29,572 nucleotides of DNA, from positions 1-29,572 of the IMG/VR virus record IMGVR_UViG_3300037560_000082. The stretch is one strand, 5' to 3'. This DNA comes from a virus (lineage: Duplodnaviria; Caudoviricetes). Below are positions 11,592-26,752 of the stretch, piece after piece; the first letter of the stretch is position 1; the number at the start of each line of letters is the position of its first letter. Made by a program: the position numbers and the translations under genes. Below the pieces are notes generated by a model that was given only the letters and a program-made list of their open reading frames with translations, had not been told where the DNA came from and ran no database searches.

Positions 11592-12178
11592 TTCGCTACG
11601 ACTGCTAATGGCTCAACATCGCCGTACCAGCTAACCGCTTCTCTCGGCACAACGAAATGATCCTTGACCATCTCGGTCTCCGTGCATGCTGTTCCGCCTG
11701 GCACTTCACCGACTGGCAGTAGCACAAATTTATTATTCTGAGCGATCACCTGGTAAGCCACCATCGCAACTGTCACCAGGTTATCTGGTGGCTGCGGCAC
11801 CATGATGATCATCTTGAATACTGGATTCGATGCGTCAGATGTTTGCGGATCAATGCTGTTGGCAGGATCACCTACGTTTATATGGTAACCAAGAAAGCAC
11901 CATCGACCAGGTGTCCAGATCGTGATGTCTGTCGTTTCACTCGCACCTGGCACTGTCGTCGGCACAAATTTTTCGAGCAACGGTTCCGCTGGTGTGTCAT
12001 CAGGATTGCAAGCGCCCCAGTTAATTTTCGTCGTCGCTAAAGATCCTGGACCTGCTGCCACGATCGGTGTCCCATCAACATTTTGCGTTGCGTTCGTCCA
12101 TTCCAGGTTGACGATAGCAGCCCCGCTAGTGGCTGATAATACTAGCAAAATCAGTGGTATAAATCGTTTCATATCCAT
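11582..12178 (-). CDS. Secreted FN3-like protein with Sec signal peptide
   Basis: MKRFIPLILLVLSATSGA signal, then VNLEWTNATQNVDGTP...PGRWCF...SDASN, then PQPPDNL and a small Cys-containing C-terminal domain. Confidence 0.7.
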   Translation of the reverse strand: MDMKRFIPLILLVLSATSGAAIVNLEWTNATQNVDGTPIVAAGPGSLATTKINWGACNPDDTPAEPLLEKFVPTTVPGASETTDITIWTPGRWCFLGYHINVGDPANSIDPQTSDASNPVFKMIIMVPQPPDNLVTVAMVAYQVIAQNNKFVLLPVGEVPGGTACTETEMVKDHFVVPREAVSWYGDVEPLAVVAKCG

Positions 12179-12345
12179 CTCCTTCGTTTCAATTTCATGT
12201 CGCCGCGCCCAAGGGCCTTCGTGTTCTTCATCTGAAGGGCACGGCTTGTCCGTTTGGCCCCATTGAATGTGTCGTAAACCTCAGCGTCTCCAGTTTCCAG
12301 ATCGAGGATGCGTCGTCCGTTACGCTCCCACCTCTGTTCAACCAT
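12169..12345 (-). CDS. Small basic hypothetical protein (58 aa)
   Basis: Manual translation: MVEQRWERNGRRILDLETGDAEVYDTFNGAKRTSRALQMK... Fills the gap with overlaps. Confidence 0.55.
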   Translation of the reverse strand: MVEQRWERNGRRILDLETGDAEVYDTFNGAKRTSRALQMKNTKALGRGDMKLKRRRWI

Positions 12346-13039
12346 GCCGGAACAATTCCTCCTTGGTCGAGTGAATCATCGGCACAGCAAAAACGTCCAC
12401 GTCCATCTCCTCAGTCTCAAAGATCGGATCGTAGGTACGTACACGATCATCGAGCCTGGCATCTTTTATCCCAAAGCCATAATCGCCATTGATGATGTGA
12501 GGGCCACCTTCGACTTGAAGTGCAGCGAAACCCTGGCTCATCGCAATAACTGAGCAAGCCTGCATCGCTTCATCGTTATCTTCAACGACGCCGACTTCAA
12601 CAATGGTCTGGTGCGAGACCTCCTTGGTATTATTCCAGGGCCATCGCTCGTCTTCGGCGCATACGAATAACCGCTCTGTGTTCTTCATCTGAGATAGGCG
12701 CGGACCAATGCGCGGACCAATGCGCGGACCAATGCGCGGACCAACCTGAATTTGTTTCTCGGTCTCGACCAGCTCACCGAATGCTCGCTGCATCAGCTCA
12801 CTGGGATCCATCAGCTTCCACGATTCAGGATCATGGAAATCAGTTTGTTCAAACAGTTGAACATCCCAGGGCTTGGCAGTATCGATGCCGTAGAAGTATT
12901 TTTCGGTGGCCTGTTCGTACCTCCAGGTGCCACCTCGAAGGGTATCTGGCAGGAACTTGGGAGCCAGGCGCGTAGCGATGGCGACTGTGGCCATGGCGCA
13001 TGCCAATCCCTCAAAAAACGCTCTCCTGGTGAGCTTCAT
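12338..13039 (-). CDS. Tat-like signal peptide protein with (GPRI) repeat
   Basis: MKLTRRAFFEGLACAMATVAIATRLAP. The N-terminus resembles that of 10937-11164. Confidence 0.7.
   Translation of the reverse strand: MKLTRRAFFEGLACAMATVAIATRLAPKFLPDTLRGGTWRYEQATEKYFYGIDTAKPWDVQLFEQTDFHDPESWKLMDPSELMQRAFGELVETEKQIQVGPRIGPRIGPRIGPRLSQMKNTERLFVCAEDERWPWNNTKEVSHQTIVEVGVVEDNDEAMQACSVIAMSQGFAALQVEGGPHIINGDYGFGIKDARLDDRVRTYDPIFETEEMDVDVFAVPMIHSTKEELFRHG
12698..12744. repeat. 12-bp tandem repeat (GCGCGGACCAAT) x3.9, in frame
   Basis: Read directly. Encodes GPRIGPRIGPRIGPR. Confidence 0.95.
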
Positions 13040-14848: not shown

Positions 14849-15180
14849 CCACTTGCCTTATCAACTTGAAATCGAATCAATGTTTCAGAGAATCCTCGAA
14901 CGAGAGCCAGGATCCAATGGCCTGTCACCACCAACAGGAAAACCTGGGCAACGATATTGATGTCTGCACCAGCCTTGATCCAATGAGTCTTGGCCGGAAG
15001 ATGCACCAGGAACTCATCGTCCATGCGAATAGAATTAAGCGAGATAGCAAACAAGCCCCAGGTGATCCAGGGAACCAGATCAGCCTGCGCCTCAGTTCCG
15101 GCAGGTGTATTCGACACGTAGATCAACCAGGTGTACCAGGTTGAAAATGCTATCGCTAACCATTGTGACATCCTGTTCAC
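14818..15180 (-). CDS. Multi-pass membrane protein
   Basis: About three hydrophobic segments. GTG start with SD AAGGAG. First gene after the 15241 promoter. Confidence 0.65.
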   Translation of the reverse strand: MNRMSQWLAIAFSTWYTWLIYVSNTPAGTEAQADLVPWITWGLFAISLNSIRMDDEFLVHLPAKTHWIKAGADINIVAQVFLLVVTGHWILALVRGFSETLIRFQVDKASGWLGVGLPRR

Positions 15181-15182
15181 GG

Positions 15183-15241
15183 CTGCTCCTTGATGACTAT
15201 ACCCTCAGCGAAAGACTACGATAAAAAGGCAGAAATCTCAA
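15183..15241 (-). promoter_or_regulatory. sigma70-like promoter plus leader motif for the accessory cassette
   Basis: TTGAGA-N17-TAGTCT-N8-GGGTATAGTC-ATCAA-GGAG on the minus strand. Confidence 0.6.
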
Positions 15242-15927: not shown

Positions 15928-16024
15928 ACTCCATTGTCTCCCGGCAGCCGCAATCGGCCCACCGAGGATGTGTCGGATGGCTCTTATGATACCTGCATGG
16001 TCGGTACACTTTCACCTGTCTCAT
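15857..16024 (-). CDS. Small hypothetical protein
   Basis: MRQVKVYRPCRYH...CGC. ATGA overlap upstream, but about 70 nt of overlap with terS. Confidence 0.35.
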   Translation of the reverse strand: MRQVKVYRPCRYHKSHPTHPRWADCGCRETMEYVRERPSGSNRSNPRQHQRLATN

Positions 16025-16209
16025 TCCGAACGCAATCGGACCTCGCACACATCACCCAATGGGATCACTTGCATGGTCGCCATGCCCTCCACTTTTAGAT
16101 GTAGATATTCATCGAGGAGCTTCCTGGCTGTGTCCAGCCTGGTCATTCCGAAGTCACGCTTCCTGAACTCCTCAGTTGCCACTCTGAATGACATCCTGTC
16201 TGCAATCAC
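16021..16209 (-). CDS. Hypothetical protein
   Basis: 62 aa, first gene of the leftward block, GAGG upstream. Confidence 0.45.
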   Translation of the reverse strand: MIADRMSFRVATEEFRKRDFGMTRLDTARKLLDEYLHLKVEGMATMQVIPLGDVCEVRLRSE

Positions 16210-16240
16210 AATTCCTCTAATTACTTTAATGACCCTGGTC

Positions 16241-16303
16241 CTTGCAATCCTGTAGTCAATGCTCTATTGTCTCACCTGGGTACATTCAGTCAAGGAGTAA
16301 GAC
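16241..16303 (+). promoter_or_regulatory. Early promoter plus leader motif 1
   Basis: TTGCAA-N17-TATTGT-N7-GGGTACATTC-AGTCAA-GGAG. Confidence 0.7.
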
Positions 16304-16474
16304 ATGGAAATCTTTTGTGCAATCGCTGTGATTTACGTCACGCTCGACCTCGCCGCCTCCGCGTATGTTGTTATAAAGCGCGGCGGCTTCAAAGCCACCA
16401 TCGCTGACATACGCCAGAACCTTGGCCTCGTAAGGGATACAGAGGAAGAAGACGATGTTCACGATCGATGGTGA
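16304..16474 (+). CDS. Small membrane protein (56 aa)
   Basis: Manual translation: MEIFCAIAVIYVTLDLAASAYVVIKRGGF...EEEDDVHDRW. SD AAGGAG. Confidence 0.65.
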   Translation: MEIFCAIAVIYVTLDLAASAYVVIKRGGFKATIADIRQNLGLVRDTEEEDDVHDRW

Positions 16475-16595
16475 GGGAGACCAATACCCAGATTTCTGGG
16501 TCATCCTGGGTGTTGCCAAGCAGTTAAGCGTTGATCTGGGCCGTAGCGTCACGATCTACAAAAACGGCAAACCCTTCAAATTTCTGCGCTACTAA
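16455..16595 (+). CDS. Small hypothetical protein (46 aa)
   Basis: Manual translation: MFTIDGEGDQYPDFWVILGVAKQLSVDLGRSVTIYKNGKPFKFLRY. Ends before the terminator. Confidence 0.55.
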   Translation: MFTIDGEGDQYPDFWVILGVAKQLSVDLGRSVTIYKNGKPFKFLRY

Positions 16596-16613
16596 ATAGC
16601 GCCATTTCTCTCC

Positions 16614-16636
16614 AGGGGCCTTCGGGCCCCTTTTTT
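16614..16636 (+). terminator. Rho-independent terminator
   Basis: GGGGCC-TTCG-GGCCCC-TTTTTT. Confidence 0.9.
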
Positions 16637-16650
16637 ATTGTCAAATTCCC

Positions 16651-16714
16651 CTTGCAATCCTGTGGTCACTGTGGCCTAATCGATCCTGGGTACAGTCAAT
16701 CAATGGAGTCAAAT
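16651..16714 (+). promoter_or_regulatory. Early promoter plus leader motif 2
   Basis: TTGCAA-N17-CCTAAT-N7-GGGTACAGTC-AATCAAT-GGAGTC. Near copy of 16241-16303. Confidence 0.65.
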
Positions 16715-17158
16715 ATGTTCCACAACATCGTAGAAGCACTCGCAGCAGCCAGCCCAGGTGGGCCAGTTCATGTCAGTCCCAGGATCGCGATCGGCCCGAA
16801 GGTTGGCCGCATCGTCGCCATCCGTCAAAATTCCGGACCACGGCACAAGCCTGGCACTTTCAATCTCTCGTTCTCTGACAGCAAGGTCGATCTTCGCACC
16901 ACCGAAGGCGACACGCTCTACAACGTGCCTCGCGAGAGGGTCGTCAACACGATCGCCGCTTTCTTCGATGGCAGCCGCACCGACGAATGCAGCAACGAGT
17001 TCGATCAGTTTATCAACCAGGCAGTGCGCGAGTGCATGGTCGTCAAGACCACACCAACCAGGTGCCGCATCGAGTACGAAATGCCGAACTCCGGCATCGT
17101 CGGTGCCTGGCGGCATCAGACCACCGTTGGTGGATTCACCTACGTCGCATCCTGGTAA
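16715..17158 (+). CDS. Hypothetical early protein
   Basis: ATG at 16715 after GGAG. C-terminal motif RCRIEYEMPNSG. Confidence 0.7.
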   Translation: MFHNIVEALAAASPGGPVHVSPRIAIGPKVGRIVAIRQNSGPRHKPGTFNLSFSDSKVDLRTTEGDTLYNVPRERVVNTIAAFFDGSRTDECSNEFDQFINQAVRECMVVKTTPTRCRIEYEMPNSGIVGAWRHQTTVGGFTYVASW

Positions 17159-17238
17159 ATGCAGCCAGTAGGGCACTCTCGCCAGTGCCCCTCTGAGTGC
17201 AATATCGCACTGCTCAATCCATATAGGAGGATTGAATT

Positions 17239-18366
17239 ATGAAAGCTGGAATGTCACTTGAAGCATTACTCTCGGAAGTCCAGCGGCAAAACTCTGTCAA
17301 GAGAGACTTCACGACTTCGACCGAAGACAATGTACGCATGGTCGAAGCTGAAGATCTCCCGAACAAAGTTGCCGTTGTGATGTTGAAGGATGGTGCTGCT
17401 GAGCTTGAGCGTTTCGCTGTATCGGAGCAAGCACACAAGCAGATCGCAGCTCGCCTGAACATCCCCAGTCGCTACTACTTGCGGCTGTTGGCTGATCACC
17501 GGGATCTCGTCGTCCACCAGGTAAACGCTCTGTTCGAGCGGGAACCGGCATCTCGCCTGTTCCGCACCCTGGATGGCACCCTTCGCGCCTTTTTGTCTGA
17601 TCGCTACCTGCGCCTGGACAACAACGATGTCCTGGAGCAAACGCTTCCGGCGATCGTCAAGGGCGAGTTGGAAACTCAACTGCTCAGCACCAATGTCGGT
17701 GAGAATAAGATGCACATGAAGGTCTTGTTCACTGGCGATGAGCTGGCCCACGAAGTTACTTCGCGCACCAAGGATGGATCCACCAGGATCATCCGCCCAG
17801 GATTCCGCATGTCCAATTCGGAAACTGGTCAGGGCACCTTGGCGATCGAAGGCTTCTTCTACGATGGTTACTGCTTGAACGGCTGCGTCTTCGGCCAGAT
17901 CGAAGCGTTCAGCTTCAAGCGCACCCATCTTGGTGGCCGACTGATCGAAGGCGTGGACTTCGAGGTACTGTCTGACCAGTCTCGTGAGCTGGAAGACAAG
18001 GCAATCATCAGCCAGGTATCCGATGTCATGACCGCGCTGGCCAATCCTGAGTTCGCTCAGAAGATGGTCACTCGCCTTCGTGCCACGACCGAGACTGGCG
18101 ATGTCCAAAGCCCGATCGGTGCAGTTGACTTGGCAGTGAAAGAGCTGGATCTGCGTGAGGATGAGAAAGAATCCATCCTCACTACGTTCATCGAAGATCG
18201 CGACTACTCGCAATGGGGCCTGGCATCTGCCATCACCCAGGTTGCGAACAAAGAAGCGACCACGTATGAGCGGTCCTGCGAGCTGGAAAATGTCGGTGCC
18301 AACGTCATCGACCTGAACCAGATTCAATGGAACAGGTTCGTACAGGCGGAGAAGATTGCCGCCTGA
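17239..18366 (+). CDS. DUF932-like phage protein
   Basis: MKAGMSLEALLSEVQRQNSVKRDF...RTLDGTLRAFLSDRYLRLDN...SNSETGQG...CLNG. SD AGGAGG. Confidence 0.75.
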   Translation: MKAGMSLEALLSEVQRQNSVKRDFTTSTEDNVRMVEAEDLPNKVAVVMLKDGAAELERFAVSEQAHKQIAARLNIPSRYYLRLLADHRDLVVHQVNALFEREPASRLFRTLDGTLRAFLSDRYLRLDNNDVLEQTLPAIVKGELETQLLSTNVGENKMHMKVLFTGDELAHEVTSRTKDGSTRIIRPGFRMSNSETGQGTLAIEGFFYDGYCLNGCVFGQIEAFSFKRTHLGGRLIEGVDFEVLSDQSRELEDKAIISQVSDVMTALANPEFAQKMVTRLRATTETGDVQSPIGAVDLAVKELDLREDEKESILTTFIEDRDYSQWGLASAITQVANKEATTYERSCELENVGANVIDLNQIQWNRFVQAEKIAA

Positions 18367-18387
18367 CTCCAGGTGTACCCGCACCGG

Positions 18388-18411
18388 AAGGGGCCTTCGG
18401 GCCCCTTTTTT
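18388..18411 (+). terminator. Rho-independent terminator (identical to 16614-16636)
   Basis: AGGGGCC-TTCG-GGCCCC-TTTTTT. Confidence 0.9.
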
Positions 18412-18435
18412 ATTAGCAGATCTGAATGCAAATTT

Positions 18436-18472
18436 CACCGCAACTGCGGTGGCAACGACCGCAACTGCGGTC
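18436..18472. repeat. Two palindromes with 21-bp period (operator or iteron-like)
   Basis: CACCGCA-AC-TGCGGTG (18436-18451) and GACCGCA-AC-TGCGGTC (18457-18472). Confidence 0.8.
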
Positions 18473-18579
18473 AATCAGCATCGCTGCCAAAATCATCTCG
18501 AAAAAAAAGTTTCAGGCCAATCCGGCTACGCCACCAAAGGGCTCCAGCACCAGTTTTGCCGTTTTGTGATCTTGTCGAG

Positions 18580-18638
18580 ATGTCATGTGGTTGTCTTTCC
18601 TGTATAATGATCATTCGGGTACAGTAATTGGAGTCATT
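18580..18638 (+). promoter_or_regulatory. Early promoter plus leader motif 3
   Basis: ATGTCA-N17-TATAAT-N8-GGGTACAGTA-ATT-GGAGTC. Confidence 0.7.
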
Positions 18639-18905
18639 ATGGAACCGGGAATTTACTACTACCACACCATCGATCAGGACGTGAAGACCTGCCTGGTCGT
18701 TCCGACTGCTCGCAGTCTCCACGTCATCATGATCACTTCTCGTGGCCTGGTAGAGCGGACAAGACCGCTCATCGAGGAGCAATTCATGAAGCCTGCGATG
18801 GACCTGAAGAAAGGGCTGTCGAAGTTCGGCGGCATCGCCAGGCGGACTGGATCCACCAAGGCTGCCAGGACATGGCTGGCCAAAGCCAGGGAGGCAATCT
18901 CATGA
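18639..18905 (+). CDS. Hypothetical early protein
   Basis: MEPGIYYYHT..., SD GGAG. Confidence 0.7.
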   Translation: MEPGIYYYHTIDQDVKTCLVVPTARSLHVIMITSRGLVERTRPLIEEQFMKPAMDLKKGLSKFGGIARRTGSTKAARTWLAKAREAIS

Positions 18906-19150
18906 GCATGAATAAGCCAGCAATCAACAGTGAATGGACCGGATGGGATGGGCTCTACAAAGTCGTAGGTTTCAAAGTGATCCACACTGGGCAGACCGGC
19001 GTTGAACTGGTTCGCTTCATCAAGACCAGGAAAACGTGGGCAAAGACTCCGGTCTGCTTCAGCTACTTGGATGAGGTCACAGACACAAAAGAATACGGCA
19101 CGAGTCCGCAGTTCTTCACCATTTTCACAGCTTCCGGAGAACACTCATGA
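18902..19150 (+). CDS. Hypothetical protein
   Basis: ATGA overlap, SD GGAGG. Confidence 0.6.
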   Translation: MSMNKPAINSEWTGWDGLYKVVGFKVIHTGQTGVELVRFIKTRKTWAKTPVCFSYLDEVTDTKEYGTSPQFFTIFTASGEHS

Positions 19151-19356
19151 GTGAACGTAAGCAAGAAATTACCAAGCGCATCAATCGCGCCTGGAGAGCT
19201 TCCGATCAGAAGATCGATTGGCTTGGTCTGGAGACCACGTTAAGGCTGATCGTGAGAGACGCGAGCCCACCGACACCGGAGCTGCGACAAATAGATGAAG
19301 CCATCGCAGCATTCACCAGGCGCGGCAATGAGTATTCAGATACGGAGGTGTTATGA
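19147..19356 (+). CDS. Hypothetical protein
   Basis: ATGA overlap, SD GGAG. Confidence 0.6.
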   Translation: MSERKQEITKRINRAWRASDQKIDWLGLETTLRLIVRDASPPTPELRQIDEAIAAFTRRGNEYSDTEVL

Positions 19357-19619
19357 GACCGAAGATGAGTGGAGTCTGGACCGAACACAACCTCACCGAG
19401 AGCATGCTGAAGCAACTGGCCGCAGCAGCCAATCGCGAGGATGGAAGTTTATATCCTGGCATCGGCTATGGTGCGCCATCCAGTCGTGCAGCACTTTTCC
19501 TCAGAGGGCTTGCGGTCAATGCCGCAGGTGACTGTAAGGAATATCCCGGATGCAGGGATGACCGCATCAACGACGCTGGCCGGAAGGCCCTCGAAGACGC
19601 CCGCAAGGAGGGCTGGTAA
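19353..19619 (+). CDS. Hypothetical protein (possible winged-helix-like)
   Basis: LTESMLKQL...ALFLRGLA...RINDAGRKAL. SD GGAGG. Confidence 0.6.
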   Translation: MRPKMSGVWTEHNLTESMLKQLAAAANREDGSLYPGIGYGAPSSRAALFLRGLAVNAAGDCKEYPGCRDDRINDAGRKALEDARKEGW

Positions 19620-20506
19620 TGAAACAACTTTTCGTAGAGAAAAACTTCAAGCAGGCATCGATAGACATCATCTACGATGCCAATCTGATCATCGAGGAGT
19701 ATCGCACCCAGGGATTCATCCTGACGTTGCGCCAGCTCTACTATCAGTTCGTCGCCAGGGACTTGCTACCGAACACACAGCGGTCCTACAAGCGCCTGGG
19801 CTCGATCATCAACGACGCCCGGCTGGCTGGCCTGGTGGACTGGCAGTCGATCGAGGATCGCACCAGGAACCTCAAGTCGAACTACCACTACGAGAATCCA
19901 CGGCAAGCTATCCAGGATGCACTCGACACCTACGAGATTGATATGTGGGAGAACCAGGCTCAGCGTGTCGAGGTGTGGATCGAGAAGAACGCATTGGTCG
20001 GCATCATTGATGGTGTCTGCCGTGAGATGGATGTGCCGTACTTTGCCTGCATCGGTTACGTCTCTCAGTCGGAGCAGTGGCGAGCCTATCAACGTGCCAG
20101 GCACTACGAGCTTGGTCGGAACCAGACCACAGTGATCCTGCACTTCGGAGACCATGACCCATCCGGCATTGACATGACCAGGGACAACCAGGACAGGCTC
20201 AATATCTTCATGGGCTGGGAAGCAGTGAAGGTCAAGCGCCTGGCATTGAACTGGGATCAGATCGAGGAGTTCAATCCTCCGCCCAACCCGGCCAAGATAA
20301 GAGATAGCCGGTTCGCCAAATACGCTGAGCAGTACGGAGATAAGAGCTGGGAGTTGGATGCTCTGGAGCCCAGCGTCATGACCGACCTGATCCGCAAGCA
20401 TGTAGAAGAACACCGTGACCCAGATCTCTGGGAAGCGAAAGTCCAGGAGCGGGCTGAGCATACGGACCAGCTCCAGGAAATAATCGACGATATACCACAG
20501 GAGTAA
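19619..20506 (+). CDS. TopoVI subunit A / JetD-like winged-helix plus TOPRIM protein
   Basis: TLRQLYYQ (winged-helix Tyr motif), EVWIEKNAL (TOPRIM Glu), FGDHDPSG (DxD) and WELDAL. Confidence 0.8.
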   Translation: MKQLFVEKNFKQASIDIIYDANLIIEEYRTQGFILTLRQLYYQFVARDLLPNTQRSYKRLGSIINDARLAGLVDWQSIEDRTRNLKSNYHYENPRQAIQDALDTYEIDMWENQAQRVEVWIEKNALVGIIDGVCREMDVPYFACIGYVSQSEQWRAYQRARHYELGRNQTTVILHFGDHDPSGIDMTRDNQDRLNIFMGWEAVKVKRLALNWDQIEEFNPPPNPAKIRDSRFAKYAEQYGDKSWELDALEPSVMTDLIRKHVEEHRDPDLWEAKVQERAEHTDQLQEIIDDIPQE

Positions 20507-20512
20507 GACGAC

Positions 20513-20854
20513 ATGATGTCACTAGAAACGATTGACTTTGTACAACGCAAGGCTGCGAAGGAGGCAGCAGAACAGAAACGAATCCCGTACCTGGTACGAC
20601 GCCGGGATCTCAGCGCCTGGGAGAATGGTCGTGGATTCCCGATCCCGTTCCCGATGCTGGGCGACTACCAGCCGCCAGGATGGACTCCGTATGGCGAGGC
20701 TCTGTTCGTGGATACCTCCGGTTTCGGCGGATCCGATGAGCCCTCCCTGACGATGCCACAGCTCCTGGAGAAGATCGAGCCAGGTGTCGGCTATGCCTTC
20801 ACCCAGCAGGGTCAGTTCCAAGCGTACATCCAGCCCTTCAAGCGGGTGTCGTGA
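20513..20854 (+). CDS. Phage hypothetical protein
   Basis: FPMLGDYQPPGW...FVDTSGFG...GQFQAYI. Confidence 0.7.
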   Translation: MMSLETIDFVQRKAAKEAAEQKRIPYLVRRRDLSAWENGRGFPIPFPMLGDYQPPGWTPYGEALFVDTSGFGGSDEPSLTMPQLLEKIEPGVGYAFTQQGQFQAYIQPFKRVS

Positions 20855-21186
20855 TGCCAGTCATCAACGGCACCCACTACCACGAGAAGACTCCCCAGGA
20901 TGTCATCGATGTCCTGGAGGAGGCTCGTGCCAAGCAGTGGCGCATCCGTGTCCACTACGGCAATACGCTCGTCGGTCAAGACTGGAATGATGAGTACGAT
21001 GTGACCGGCAGAATCGGTCGCTCAATGGGCCCGGTCAAGGTTCCTCTGCTCATCCATAACGCTCGATCCCTGGGAGGTCCAGCAATGCTCGATCACTGCA
21101 TTGTCAGGATCCGGTTTTCTAACTGGCAACGTGATGGCAGGAGCAATCTGTACTGCCATCCGAAGTATCACGGAGAAGCAGCATGA
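20851..21186 (+). CDS. Conserved phage hypothetical protein
   Basis: GTHYHEKTP...RIRVHYG...GRIGRSMG...GGPAMLDHCIVRI. Confidence 0.75.
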   Translation: MMPVINGTHYHEKTPQDVIDVLEEARAKQWRIRVHYGNTLVGQDWNDEYDVTGRIGRSMGPVKVPLLIHNARSLGGPAMLDHCIVRIRFSNWQRDGRSNLYCHPKYHGEAA

Positions 21187-21416
21187 AGCACTTAACCAAA
21201 GATCAGCGCACAGCACTCAAAGCCGTGTTTGATCGCAAGCCCCTGTATCGTGGTGGGAGTGGCGCTGCTCTCATCTGGCACCAGGGAGACAGGCCCATGA
21301 CCTATCGCGAATTTCGCAGGACCGTGATACCTGAGCTTGGCGGATACGGTGCCGCACTGGTTCCATGGTGTGGCATGTGGCTGGGCATCGAGAAAGACGG
21401 TCACACGCATAGCTGA
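21183..21416 (+). CDS. Conserved phage hypothetical protein
   Basis: LTKDQRTALK...YREFRRTV...WCGMWLGIEKDGHTHS. Confidence 0.75.
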   Translation: MKHLTKDQRTALKAVFDRKPLYRGGSGAALIWHQGDRPMTYREFRRTVIPELGGYGAALVPWCGMWLGIEKDGHTHS

Positions 21417-21433
21417 GTGACAGGAGAAATAGC

Positions 21434-21751
21434 ATGAGCAGATCCAGAGCAGAAGTAGACAAGCTGCGAGCTGAGATGAAGCGAGCAGTCCGCTATCGTG
21501 ACGGTCCTGGTCAGATGAACACCATCTACTTGGGAGGCATGGCGACCGCAGCCATGTACTCCTGCCTTGGCAGTTCGATGACACAGGCGATGCGAGACAA
21601 GAAAAGTTTCCAAGTCCTGATCGACGAAGCATCAGATGGGCAGATCGAGGATGCCTGGGAGTACCAGGGATTCCAGTGGATCCTGGAACACTACCGAAGG
21701 GCTGGCTCCAAGCTGTACAGGTTCGATACCACAGCCACCGAGATCGACTAA
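21434..21751 (+). CDS. Hypothetical protein
   Basis: 105 aa, SD AGGAG. Confidence 0.65.
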   Translation: MSRSRAEVDKLRAEMKRAVRYRDGPGQMNTIYLGGMATAAMYSCLGSSMTQAMRDKKSFQVLIDEASDGQIEDAWEYQGFQWILEHYRRAGSKLYRFDTTATEID

Positions 21752-21780
21752 AGAAAAGGGCCCTCGATTGAGGGCCCTTC
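21750..21780 (-). terminator. Terminator between convergent operons (U-tract on the minus strand; possibly bidirectional)
   Basis: AAGGGCCCTC-GATT-GAGGGCCCTT, followed by TTCTTT on the minus strand. Confidence 0.8.
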
Positions 21781-21895
21781 TCGAATAAAGGCGACCGGAG
21801 CATCTTTGCCAGAATTGGCTATCGTGAAAGTGGGTACAGTCGCGGAGCCAGAAAGCGTAGGTTACGCCGGGTCGCCAGGGGTCGGTGCTACTTTA
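21752..21895 (-). ncRNA. Candidate structured antisense RNA (3' UTR or independent)
   Basis: ORF-free gap. Outer stem 21790-21798/21867-21876, inner stem 21816-21820/21846-21850, and an apical loop carrying CUGUACCC complementary to the leader motif. Confidence 0.45.
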
Positions 21896-21937
21896 TTTCA
21901 TCATCAGTGGTCCAGCGGGGCTTGCAATTCGGTGAGG

Positions 21938-22393
21938 TCACAATAGCACAGTCGGTTCCAGTTCAACAACCACCATTCCACCATCTACGATATTGCTCGT
22001 GCGATAGGCATGATGCTCTACGATCTGGTAGTCATCCATAAAAACTCCAGATTTTTGAAGGGCATCCTCCAGCATCTTGAATAGATTAGAGGTATCCCGT
22101 TTCCTCCGATCAGGCGGATAAGTCCAGAACGACATCTTCAATGGACAGCTCCAGTTCCTGGCTGCCCGGTCGCGCATCACAATGGACTGCACGTTGCGAT
22201 GGAACTCCTTCGCCTGGAATGTCGGATACACCTGAACAAATTGCTTGCCCTTGATGAACGGACCAGCAACACGGTGACCGTTATAATGATTGGCGCTTGG
22301 TGGCCAGGGTAACTCCAGTCTCAGCCCAGGTGGCTTTGCACTGGTGTCGCTGACTTCCAGTTCTCGTTGCTCCATAGCTTTGCTTGCTCCCAT
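21938..22393 (-). CDS. rusA: RusA-like Holliday junction resolvase
   Basis: LPWPPSANHY...PPDRRKRDTSNLFKMLEDAL...DDYQI. Confidence 0.9.
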   Translation of the reverse strand: MGASKAMEQRELEVSDTSAKPPGLRLELPWPPSANHYNGHRVAGPFIKGKQFVQVYPTFQAKEFHRNVQSIVMRDRAARNWSCPLKMSFWTYPPDRRKRDTSNLFKMLEDALQKSGVFMDDYQIVEHHAYRTSNIVDGGMVVVELEPTVLL

Positions 22394-22737
22394 ATGTCGT
22401 ATTCGAGCTGTTCATTTACTTCATGCAGGAAGCCGACCTGGCTTCCGAATGTCCTTTCCCACTCAACCACTCCAGAAGATCCATCGATGCCCATAGGTCC
22501 AACGTGATACTTCAGAATGATCGGGATCTGGAAGAACGGATTGTTGCGTTCACCCATGCCTGGATTCTGAAACGCAGGGCCGAGACTCAACATGGATCCA
22601 CCATGGCAGTGATGCAGCGTCACCGGATACAACATGCTCACCATGCAACGCAACTGACGCAGGTTCTTCTCGTGGCGACTGACGCTAATCTTCTTCGGTG
22701 GATCGCCACTCGCTATAAGGTCTCCTGATTCGGTCAT
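22321..22737 (-). CDS. Ref/DUF968-like HNH-type protein (some Cys residues lost)
   Basis: LRCMVS...TLHHCHG...GMG...IPIILKYH...WERTFGSQ. Confidence 0.55.
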   Translation of the reverse strand: MTESGDLIASGDPPKKISVSRHEKNLRQLRCMVSMLYPVTLHHCHGGSMLSLGPAFQNPGMGERNNPFFQIPIILKYHVGPMGIDGSSGVVEWERTFGSQVGFLHEVNEQLEYDIWEQAKLWSNENWKSATPVQSHLG

Positions 22738-24788: not shown

Positions 24789-25561
24789 TTCCTCTCCACG
24801 TATTTGTTCTCGAAGACTCCGACCATAGCAGTCTCTCTGATACAGAAATCGAAGTTGGCTACCCAGCTTCTGTCGTTCTGGCCGAGGAGGAACGGGCAGT
24901 TGTTGGTGATGAATTTGAAGTAGCGTTCCCAGGTTTCGAGATCGTTGAAATACCTCTCCTTACCCTGCACCTCGACACTGAATGTCTTCCACCTAGCTCG
25001 CATGGCTGCCTGTCTTTTGTTGTTGATGACTTTGACCCTGGGTAGGGCAGGGCAGTGTTCGTGATAGAGATCGACGATCGCCTGGTGGGGCACCCTCTCC
25101 GTAGGAGAGGTAGTAGGTTTGTTCTTGGTTCTTGGTTCTTGGTTCTTGGTTTGCATTGCGGATGCACATGCGTCCGCATCTGCGTCAGCATCTAACGTCT
25201 GGTTTTTCCAGCGTTTTTCCGCAGCCTTTTTCGCCTGGGCACCCTTCTTCTCGATGCGAACATACTCTCGATACAGTCTTCTGTTGATCAGGGTGTGGGA
25301 GTTGAGCTGCTCGAACTTATCATCCAGGTAGGTTTTCCAGATGTCCTTCCACTGCTCTGCATTCTGAAAGCCAGCTATCCTGGCGGCATGCCTCTGATCA
25401 TACGGAATGCCTCCGTTGTGCCACTGGTAGTTCATCAACCTGATCAGCGCACCGACAGCCTCTGGAGGCCAGGATGCGGTATCTGCGGTGAAGTCTCGCT
25501 CGAATAACGGATACCATGGCATCCTGGGCTTCCCAGCTCCAGCCAATGGTTTCTCGCTCAT
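24785..25561 (-). CDS. Replication initiator (DUF1376/YdaU-like N-terminus)
   Basis: PWYPLFERDFTADT...GALIRLMNYQW, a central repeat linker, and C-terminal SWVANFDF. Lies directly upstream of dnaB. Confidence 0.85.
   Translation of the reverse strand: MSEKPLAGAGKPRMPWYPLFERDFTADTASWPPEAVGALIRLMNYQWHNGGIPYDQRHAARIAGFQNAEQWKDIWKTYLDDKFEQLNSHTLINRRLYREYVRIEKKGAQAKKAAEKRWKNQTLDADADADACASAMQTKNQEPRTKNKPTTSPTERVPHQAIVDLYHEHCPALPRVKVINNKRQAAMRARWKTFSVEVQGKERYFNDLETWERYFKFITNNCPFLLGQNDRSWVANFDFCIRETAMVGVFENKYVERK
25121..25192. repeat. Putative replication origin inside the initiator gene
   Basis: (GTTCTTG)x4 at 25121-25148 plus three 12-bp units TTGCGGATGCAC, ATGCGTCCGCAT and CTGCGTCAGCAT at 25156-25191. 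Intragenic position as in lambda O. Confidence 0.6.
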
Positions 25562-25628
25562 GCGCCCCCTTCTCCGATTTAACTGTACCCTGGAGACACA
25601 TGGTATATGGCCTTGATTATGTGGTCAA
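25562..25628 (-). promoter_or_regulatory. Promoter plus leader motif for the replication operon
   Basis: TTGACC-N17-TACCAT-N9-GGGTACAGTT-AAATC-GGAG. Confidence 0.75.
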
Positions 25629-25632
25629 ATAC

Positions 25633-25696
25633 CTTGCAATCTGGTAGTCAAGCAGTCAGAATGTGGGCCTGGGTACGGTCGAAATTGGAGCCACAT
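25633..25696 (+). promoter_or_regulatory. Promoter plus leader motif for the recombination operon
   Basis: TTGCAA-N17-CAGAAT-N8-GGGTACGGTC-GAAATT-GGAGCC. Confidence 0.7.
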
Positions 25697-26752
25697 ATGT
25701 CAAACGACAAGCCTCGTCTACCAGCAGTTGTGCAGACTGCTCTCACTGGCGCTCGTCGTCCGTTCGAGAAGATCTCTGGGCAAGGTGGCCACCTGGTTAC
25801 CTGGGAGAAAGAGTCTATGTTCGCCATGCAAATACTGGCGAGGAATACGTTGCTCCAGAAATGCGAACCGCACACCATCCGTGATGCCGTGATCAACATC
25901 GCATCGATCGGACTCTCTCTCAATCCGGCGCTCAAGCATTGCGCCCTGATTCCCCGTTACAACAACTCGCTCAAGCTCTACGAGTGCCACTGTGATCCGA
26001 TGTACCAGGGCCTGATCGCTATCGCGACCGATGGCGGAGCTGTGATTAGCATTCGAGCTGATATTGTTCGCGAGATGGATCGAGAAGACCGACGCTTCTG
26101 GTATCGATCAGGAAGCGATCCGCACCTTCATCACGAACCAGATCCATTCATGAAAGAGAAGGATCGAGGCGAAGTGATCGGCGCGTATGCCATCGCTGAA
26201 ATTGCAGGATCCAAACATCCGCACATCACGTTCATGTCGATCGAGGAGATCGAGAACGTCCGTGACAAATCGGAGATGTGGAAGAAACACAAGAAGGGCC
26301 CATGGGCTGACTGGTTCCAGGAGATGGCGAAGAAGACCGTCATCAAGCGAGCGCAGAAGACCTGGCCGAAGGGCACTGGTCGCCTGGAGAAAGCCGTGCA
26401 GATGGCGAACATCGCTGAAGGTTATGCCGGTATGGATGAACCGATCGAAGCTGAATCGATCGAGCTGATCAGCGAGGATGAAGCCAAGGAGCTGCGAACC
26501 GCAGCCAGGAAAGCTCATCTCCGTGTCGAGAGAATCTACAAGGCATTCAACATCGACAAGATGGAGGAGCTGCCGAAGAAGGATCTTGACCTGTGCCGTA
26601 AGCGCATCAACCAGGCTGGACTGAAGTACATCCTGAAGTCCGCAGAAGACGAGCCCAAGGTTACCGTGTCAGCGAAAGACTGGGGCATGACCTATTCTGA
26701 TATGGAAGCCCTGGGTGCGGAATTTGAAACAAAGGCGACGATCAGTGAGTAA
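25697..26752 (+). CDS. recT: RecT-family single-strand annealing protein
   Basis: AVINIASIGLSLNPALKHCALIPR, MYQGLI, IGAYAIA and GPWADWFQEMAKKTVIKRAQKTWP. ATG at 25697 after GGAG. Confidence 0.92.
   Translation: MSNDKPRLPAVVQTALTGARRPFEKISGQGGHLVTWEKESMFAMQILARNTLLQKCEPHTIRDAVINIASIGLSLNPALKHCALIPRYNNSLKLYECHCDPMYQGLIAIATDGGAVISIRADIVREMDREDRRFWYRSGSDPHLHHEPDPFMKEKDRGEVIGAYAIAEIAGSKHPHITFMSIEEIENVRDKSEMWKKHKKGPWADWFQEMAKKTVIKRAQKTWPKGTGRLEKAVQMANIAEGYAGMDEPIEAESIELISEDEAKELRTAARKAHLRVERIYKAFNIDKMEELPKKDLDLCRKRINQAGLKYILKSAEDEPKVTVSAKDWGMTYSDMEALGAEFETKATISE

Follow-up and report, generated by a model that had tools for sequence, protein, structure and literature searches.

A conserved 3′-UTR hairpin and its likely role as the lesser of two antisense hairpins in a proposed phage leader-control system

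Downstream of the DUF932-like gene of a tailed phage lies a short hairpin, H1. It is a real, conserved element whose sequence context is most readily understood if it is one of two antisense hairpins, the smaller one, in an undescribed phage leader-control system. H1 and the larger hairpin, H2, would act together in trans, braking by antisense pairing the translation of each first gene in seven predicted operons, a reading to which we assign a probability of roughly 0.58. The features that can be seen in the sequence itself are the complementarity to the leaders, the hairpins, their location directly ahead of terminators and on the same strand as the upstream genes, their conservation, and the pattern of substitutions in the leaders.

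RESULTS

The phage and its relatives

The window (the whole stretch of DNA analysed, 29 572 nt) is a 29.6-kb tailed-phage fragment encoding terminase subunits, a DnaB-like helicase, an O-like initiator, a RusA-like resolvase, a RecT-like protein and exonucleases. A longer record, G003, matches it at 100% in each protein compared and has identical letters at the motif sites, and a relative rated complete (G001, 72.8 kb) shares its layout. With two proteins as queries, the best matches among those listed from cultured phages were less than 38% identical, and no host was assigned because the genome-contig search gave two distant loci. No tyrosine integrase was found in any of the five records examined, one of which is complete, and no antirepressor among the 81 ORFs scanned, a subset of the ORFs present. 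A CsrA homologue is encoded in three of the five records (G003:10156-10305, minus strand, L350; also G001 and G005), and it may act on the leaders because all Shine-Dalgarno (SD) sequences of the phage are GGAG. In several distant DUF932 phages (e.g. L139, L141, L145), an ORF downstream of the DUF932 gene has a start that looks CsrA-like. Small ORFs with a weak HTH_3-like match occur on the minus strand at G001:27071-27187, between both terminase genes, and at G002:39761-39880. A perfect 12-nt tandem repeat of about four copies (12698-12744) lies within the ORF at 12338-13039.

Pfam and NCBIfam searches with the DUF932-like protein of the window itself returned no match. The 5′ UTR of its gene (17165-17236, plus strand) forms three conserved hairpins whose stems have varied yet stayed paired (z −4.1), the third concealing the SD (AGGAGG), and in L003 a similar three-hairpin unit lies on both sides of the gene. 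This 5′ UTR has no Rfam match and could be a processing or translation-control element.

Table 1. Positions of the hairpins, terminators, leaders and associated gene (window coordinates unless another record is named)
Feature	Position	Strand	Description
DUF932-like gene (phrog_1362)	17239..18366	+	3′ UTR contains H1; several homologues with PF06067
H1	18364..18388	+	starts at TGA 18364-18366, the stop of ORF 17239-18366; CUCC 18367-18370; 5-bp stem 18372-18376/18381-18385; apical loop ACCC 18377-18380; seed UGUACCC 18374-18380
Intrinsic terminator-like stem-loop	18390..18411	+	stem-loop 18390-18405, T-run 18406-18411; closes leader-2 operon
H2	21790..21876	-	87-nt imperfect rod after RusA-like gene; CUCC in 5′ arm; apical CUGUACCC
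Terminator-like stem-loop and U-run	21750..21779	-	behind H2, closes replication operon
Leader 1	16242..16306	+	-35 TTGCAA, -10 TATTGT, GGGTACAT at 16278, GGAG, ATG 16304 (56-aa ORF)
Leader 2	16652..16717	+	-35 TTGCAA, -10 CCTAAT, GGGTACAG at 16688, GGAG, ATG 16715; H1's own predicted operon
Leader 3	18580..18641	+	-35 ATGTCA, -10 TATAAT, GGGTACAG at 18617, GGAG, ATG 18639; H1's best predicted partner
Leader 4 (RecT-like operon)	25634..25699	+	GGGTACGG at 25671, wobble variant
Leader 5 (O-like initiator, DnaB, RusA operon)	25559..25628	-	-35 TTGACC, -10 TACCAT, GGGTACAG at 25590
Leader 6	G003 position 12033, outside window	-	
Leader 7, behind small terminase gene	15178..15241	-	GGGTATAG at 15204, wobble variant

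Structure of H1 and its complementarity to leaders

A previous, sequence-only reading of this DNA had claimed that the reverse complement of H1 matches leader 3 in two 8-nt blocks, and its coordinates and letters are correct: CGGGTACA (18616-18623) and TGGAGTCA (18629-18636) are each an exact complement of H1. The further match that it saw with leader 2 is also present, with one G-U pair. RNAfold reproduces the proposed fold (−24.8 kcal/mol for H1 plus its terminator, z −3.3); the proposed outer UCC/GGA pairs are not conserved, being absent in L002, L005 and L331. Within a 250-nt context, the ACCC loop is predicted to be unpaired with a probability of at least 0.99, and the CUCC block is mostly paired in predictions of the full mRNA and of the same context. 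In first-order Markov sequences of window size (200 samples), the pattern CTCC-N1-9-TGTACCC, chosen post hoc, is expected 0.05 times per sequence. The terminator stem of the leader-2 operon shows paired changes among relatives.

Other identities for H1 were tried and rejected. It had been conceded in advance that H1 might prove to be the leader of a minus-strand transcript, and in all 13 copies the opposite strand lacks both a -10-like hexamer (TAnnnT) and a start codon after GGAG at the leader spacing. An anti-terminator formed by the 3′ arm of H1 and the terminator loop is not conserved (L125, L331), and CsrA binding to H1 was dropped as the GGA behind the stem is absent in L002, L005 and L331. 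Rfam gave no match at gathering score in the window and, in a scan of 16000-22500 at E ≤ 10, nothing beyond weak terminator-like matches; none was found in L132 and L347. ARAGORN made no tRNA-like call. A search for RNA runs gave one run, X1, with 0.06 of the words; it consists of contigs and may be DNA, so contig ends near H1 in it were given no weight.

Conservation of H1

Lack of conservation was the other outcome that would have counted against the antisense idea, and H1 is carried by 13 of the 17 distinct UTRs from the clade of leader-bearing relatives; the survey of DUF932 loci excluded 12 in which the 3′ end of the gene is not covered. It is absent from L128, L132, L133 and L134, which retain leaders; missing from four of 17, it is a secondary element and not an equal partner of the RNA at 21832. 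The H1 seed occurs in none of 42 other DUF932 loci. L005 and L331 carry H1 behind a replacement DUF932 gene whose product is 30-32% identical to that of the window, compared with up to 56% identity for the DUF932 proteins of non-carriers, so H1 tracks the leader system and not the protein.

Among 10 close carriers the 18 core bases of H1 are unchanged, versus 310 of 402 fourfold-degenerate gene sites that are identical (77%), a comparison that leaves out L128 (a non-carrier with 88% protein identity). The terminator stem adjoining H1 varies among relatives, and the matching spacer upstream of the near-identical terminator of operon 1 varies freely and is not conserved. The H1 stem is invariant in 10 of 11 distinct rows. 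The exception, L331, breaks four of the five pairs in register and has a stem of different letters with the seed still at the hairpin tip; its register is shifted by one, so we regard it as a rebuilt hairpin and not as classical covariation. No column-wise compensatory change was seen in the stem across the 11 distinct rows, nor any cognate-pair covariation between H1 and leaders.

The CUCC block is invariant in 13 of 13 H1 copies. By an eye count, 11 of 15 relatives have it ahead of terminator 1 as well, and two UTRs carry it although the loop is missing, so that the anti-SD block by itself is weak evidence. The pyrimidine-rich spacer that bears the CTCC before terminator 1 (16598-16614, plus strand) is otherwise variable.

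Leaders and their promoters

Seven promoters are predicted (six in the window, one in G003), each followed by GGGU(A/G)(C/U)(A/G)G (Table 1). The -35 hexamer is mostly TTGCAA, the motif GGGTACAG or a variant begins 7-10 nt behind the -10 hexamer, and GGAG and a start codon mostly follow; in leader 6 and some copies of leader 7 the motif stands directly before the start codon. Two of these leaders lead into small early ORFs and three into operons, namely the one that follows H1, the RecT operon and the initiator-DnaB-RusA operon; of the others, one precedes a gene behind the small terminase gene and one a gene for a 160-aa protein with a signal-peptide-like start. Where GGAG follows closely, it lies 4-12 nt from the motif, a variable spacing that suits two RNA helices better than a single protein footprint. 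Leaders fold no better than shuffles. The -10 spacing suggests that transcription starts at GGG or beside it, so that the target would be an unstructured 5′ end.

Some other features of the promoter regions were noted. The promoters at 16242-16259, 16652-16668 and 25634-25651 share TTGCAA-N7-GTCA, which spans the -35 box as an imperfect inverted repeat, is kept in relatives and is possibly a DNA operator distinct from the leader motif. Upstream of promoter 3 (18440-18530, plus strand) lies a short near-palindromic direct repeat (CCGCAACTGCGGT) with an A/T-tract block, the A/T tract being retained in most close relatives. At L132:9014, L133:4476 and L134:4712, all without H1, the leader motif stands right behind the DUF932 terminator and before a start codon; no promoter was seen there, and the motif forms part of a 12-nt match to the H2 of this sub-clade.

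Predicted pairing energies

With −16.7 kcal/mol, leader 3 is the best predicted partner of H1 against 14 736 sampled 28-nt windows from both strands, and leader 2 (−13.9 kcal/mol) is bettered only by windows overlapping leader 3. Leaders 1 and 5 fall near the top 1% of windows, and leader 4 is unremarkable, being equalled by 6%. The predicted H1-leader duplexes cover GGAG, and the CUCC match lengthens to 7-8 nt across the SDs of leaders 2 and 3. The distance from H1 is 236 nt to leader 3, which follows it on the same strand, and 1.7 kb to leader 2, which precedes it. Across six genomes it showed no preference for leaders of its own genome over those of relatives. All five leaders tested with H2 are within the top 0.3% of 5883 windows; leaders 4 and 5 are the best, at −22.4 and −22.6 kcal/mol, at the top of the set.

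The sister hairpin H2

A reverse copy at 21832 had been noted before, and H1 was called a second copy in the same context. Both copies stand before terminators. The 21832 copy, though, is no small hairpin of this kind but the tip of the 87-nt rod H2, between the RusA-like stop codon and the terminator. In the window and in the complete G001, H1 and H2 are the only reverse GGGTACA copies followed by GGAG without a promoter and start codon. H2 was present in all 17 loci that cover the spot, including L132-L134, which are without H1; of the two antisense elements it is probably the main one.

With the three most diverged of the 17 H2 sequences excluded, the alignment of the other 14 folds with 22 pairs on the antisense strand (−15.9 kcal/mol) versus 14 pairs on the other strand (−11.2 kcal/mol). 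One pair is U-A in seven sequences and U-G in seven, and is formable on the antisense strand only. A covariance model of H2 run over 69 sources retrieved the window and G001 only, both in the training set, and missed the diverged L132-L134 copies. A tRNA-like cloverleaf was rejected for H2 as a fold of the window sequence alone, the consensus being a rod, and so was a promoter of its own (TTGCAA 21922-21927), which is not conserved in relatives.

Substitutions in the leader motif

Collecting leaders by promoter anchors in 28 contigs gave 85 rows, of which 84 were kept after one mis-anchored row was dropped; the anchors were written after the sites had been seen, so that a leader without the motif could have escaped them. 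All 84 rows read GGGT at positions 1-4, with no G-to-A or T-to-C change. At position 5, 82 rows have A and 2 have G; position 6 is C in 74 and T in 10, position 7 is A in 78 and G in 6, and position 8 is G in 81 of the 84. All 18 changes in the 7-nt core keep pairing with UGUACCC via G-U, and A5G, C6U and A7G are the sole types seen; we estimate, without a tree, that they represent about 12 independent events, the relatives sharing ancestry. In promoter spacers of the same loci, wobble-type changes account for 15 of 97 minor alleles (8 of 31 from A, 7 of 20 from C), and the chance of a wobble-only pattern is about 0.02, counting one allele type per position. The wobble-only core changes therefore favour RNA pairing over a DNA operator.

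Outside the core, the three changes at position 8 are mismatches and not wobble-compatible. The G at this position pairs with H2 and faces a G in H1, so H2 is probably the source of most selection on the leaders. At position 9, the H2 base has changed in L132-L134, and the matching base is found in leader 1 (L132, L134) and in an internal leader, a match that an operator model would predict equally. Leader 7 has degenerate non-wobble forms in L130, L131 and L179, where its promoter also seems gone. Relatives with a different seed were sought with RusA and phrog_6247 alignments in viral contigs, and none appeared among the matches listed, which comprised known clade members and distant proteins; the matches listed from two loose pattern scans were mostly due to chance and were discarded.

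With the wobble spectrum of the 84 leaders and the strand-specific folding of H2 added to its own arguments, the antisense reading of H1 is partly supported.

DISCUSSION

Proposed mechanism and alternatives

In the mechanism that we propose, the open ACCC loop of H1 would seed on the free GGGU 5′ end of a leader, the short stem would open, and the helix would grow to UGUACCC/GGGUACA. CUCC would then pair with the GGAG Shine-Dalgarno 4-12 nt downstream and block entry of the 30S subunit. The hairpin with its terminator may persist as a stable 3′ fragment, or the whole mRNA may act. Five of the seven operons are without a reverse copy of their own and so would be reachable only in trans. As H1 and H2 both end operons driven by this promoter class, early and replication genes would come under negative feedback as the hairpins accumulate, and the first genes damped would include the replication initiator and RecT. 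H2 looks like the primary regulator and H1 like a dispensable helper tuned to leaders 2 and 3, an optional booster whose weight would fall on those two.

A different account takes GGGTRYRG to be an asymmetric DNA site, operator-like or promoter-proximal, for a phage protein, with the pre-terminator copies serving as extra sites or roadblocks and the hairpins incidental. The nearly fixed distance of the motif behind the -10 hexamer fits such a site, and the weak HTH_3 matches in G001 and G002 could point to a binding protein. Protein-DNA motifs commonly tolerate transitions, which we counted in its favour; against this, no G-to-A or T-to-C change occurs at positions 1-4, and position 8 is better kept than positions 6 and 7, as pairing predicts. 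A DNA site also leaves unexplained why both 3′ copies run opposite to the direction of transcription, are placed at the tips of hairpins and retain GGAG where the strand offers no start codon, and why the H2 rod is conserved with strand-specific G-U pairs. The HTH segment of G001 has no tblastn match in the window, and G003, an incomplete record, no HTH_3 match. We consider this account unlikely. We also judge it improbable that control is confined to cis, the 3′ end of the leader-2 mRNA folding onto its own 5′ end through H1 as in icaR, limiting translation or triggering decay, and H2 doing likewise for leader 5. That H1 and H2 end the leader-2 and leader-5 operons and each bind their own leader well is what it would predict; CUCC before terminator 1 and the icaR precedent (PMC3868564) lend it further weight. 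Yet leaders 1, 3, 4, 6 and 7 retain the motif and the wobble pattern without a reverse copy in their own operon, and the best partner of H1, leader 3, sits on another transcript.

The pairing could also be real and its effect something other than repression, with H1 shielding 5′ ends from end-dependent decay or competing with H2 and so relieving repression. The position-8 mismatch and the mostly paired anti-SD block would let H1 hold a 5′ end with the SD uncovered, and H1 is dispensable; nevertheless, the invariance of CUCC in 13 of 13 copies, its extension to 7-8 nt of pairing across the SDs of leaders 2 and 3, and predicted complexes that cover the SD make this quite improbable. Lastly, H1 might be a relic without function, derived from an inverted leader or a piece of H2 and travelling with the terminator. 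Its loss in L128 in spite of 88% protein identity, its absence from L132-L134 and the close relationship of the sampled clade are compatible with a relic. Such a sequence would hardly stay unchanged in 10 close carriers at 77% silent-site identity, be retained through gene replacement, and be rebuilt as a hairpin in L331 beside a terminator stem that varies, and we rate this explanation as very improbable.

Comparison with known systems

The antisense reading has partial counterparts among described RNAs. RNA-OUT of IS10 is transcribed opposite a single target and is fully complementary to it over the overlap. Pairing starts between its hairpin loop and the 5′ tail of RNA-IN, which is unstructured, and the ribosome site becomes blocked (PMC4737173). 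H1 would act in a like manner; its loop is predicted to be open and is complementary to a leader motif 7-10 nt behind the -10 hexamer. H1 is not a cis-antisense RNA, which would lie on the opposite strand and overlap its target. In contrast to RNA-OUT, H1 and H2 are encoded away from their targets and lie at the ends of protein-coding operons; they would pair through two short blocks and have seven leaders as possible partners.

Among phages, the c4 RNA of P1 and P7 and the CI RNA of P4 are described as structured antisense RNAs with looped complementary sequences and two pairing blocks that act on transcripts of their own phage, the CI RNA being cut from a longer transcript (PMC12197685, PMC4825925). 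H1 and H2 are similarly phage RNAs with looped complementary blocks. The c4 and CI RNAs are cut out of their precursor by RNase P. Unlike them, H1 and H2 have no Rfam match of the C4 type at the covariance-model level. The c4 and CI RNAs control a single immunity operon close to the gene that encodes them; in the present phage, two unrelated 3′-UTR hairpins face a genome-wide leader motif. A replication operon is among the predicted targets, since leader 5 heads the O-like/DnaB operon, in a phage with no tyrosine integrase in five of five records and no antirepressor among 81 ORFs. The phage antisense RNAs described in the literature covered (sar, OOP, c4 and CI; PMC12197685, PMC4825925) each control one gene or operon.

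The icaR mRNA of Staphylococcus aureus has a C-rich 3′-UTR motif complementary to the SD region at its own 5′ end, and this pairing is predicted to hinder initiation (PMC3868564). In a mechanism of this type the duplex of 5′ and 3′ UTR would be an RNase III substrate and would block initiation. The anti-SD block of H1 pairs comparably with leader 2 (−13.9 kcal/mol), on what the gene layout suggests is one shared transcript. The icaR case differs in involving a single mRNA with a long UTR, whereas H1 is 22 nt, has a separate 5′-end seed in a loop and finds its best partner on another transcript. Bacterial small RNAs derived from 3′ UTRs (a review is PMC9438474) are akin to H1 in that its seed lies between a stop codon and an intrinsic terminator; the targets of H1 are 5′ ends of the phage's own transcripts and not host mRNAs. 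The literature covered, with subscription papers and supplements outside its scope, yielded no description of the H1 element or of a shared 5′ tag read by 3′-UTR hairpins.

Implications

A check for wobble-only substitutions can be carried over to other cases as a computational means of telling an RNA-pairing motif from a DNA operator. For the phage itself, a broader and more tentative idea is that feedback runs on RNA only: every sigma-70-type operon would carry a shared 5′ tag, and two 3′-end hairpins would read this tag in trans, shutting translation of the initiator, RecT and host-takeover genes as transcripts and genome copies accumulate. If true, such feedback could serve as a timer, control copy number or confer superinfection immunity, with neither a protein repressor nor an integrase involved. 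With one 5′ tag shared across the genome and recognised by the 3′ ends of mRNAs, an entire early regulon could be silenced compactly and without protein, and such tag-reading hairpins suggest why some phages start all their early transcripts with one short motif.
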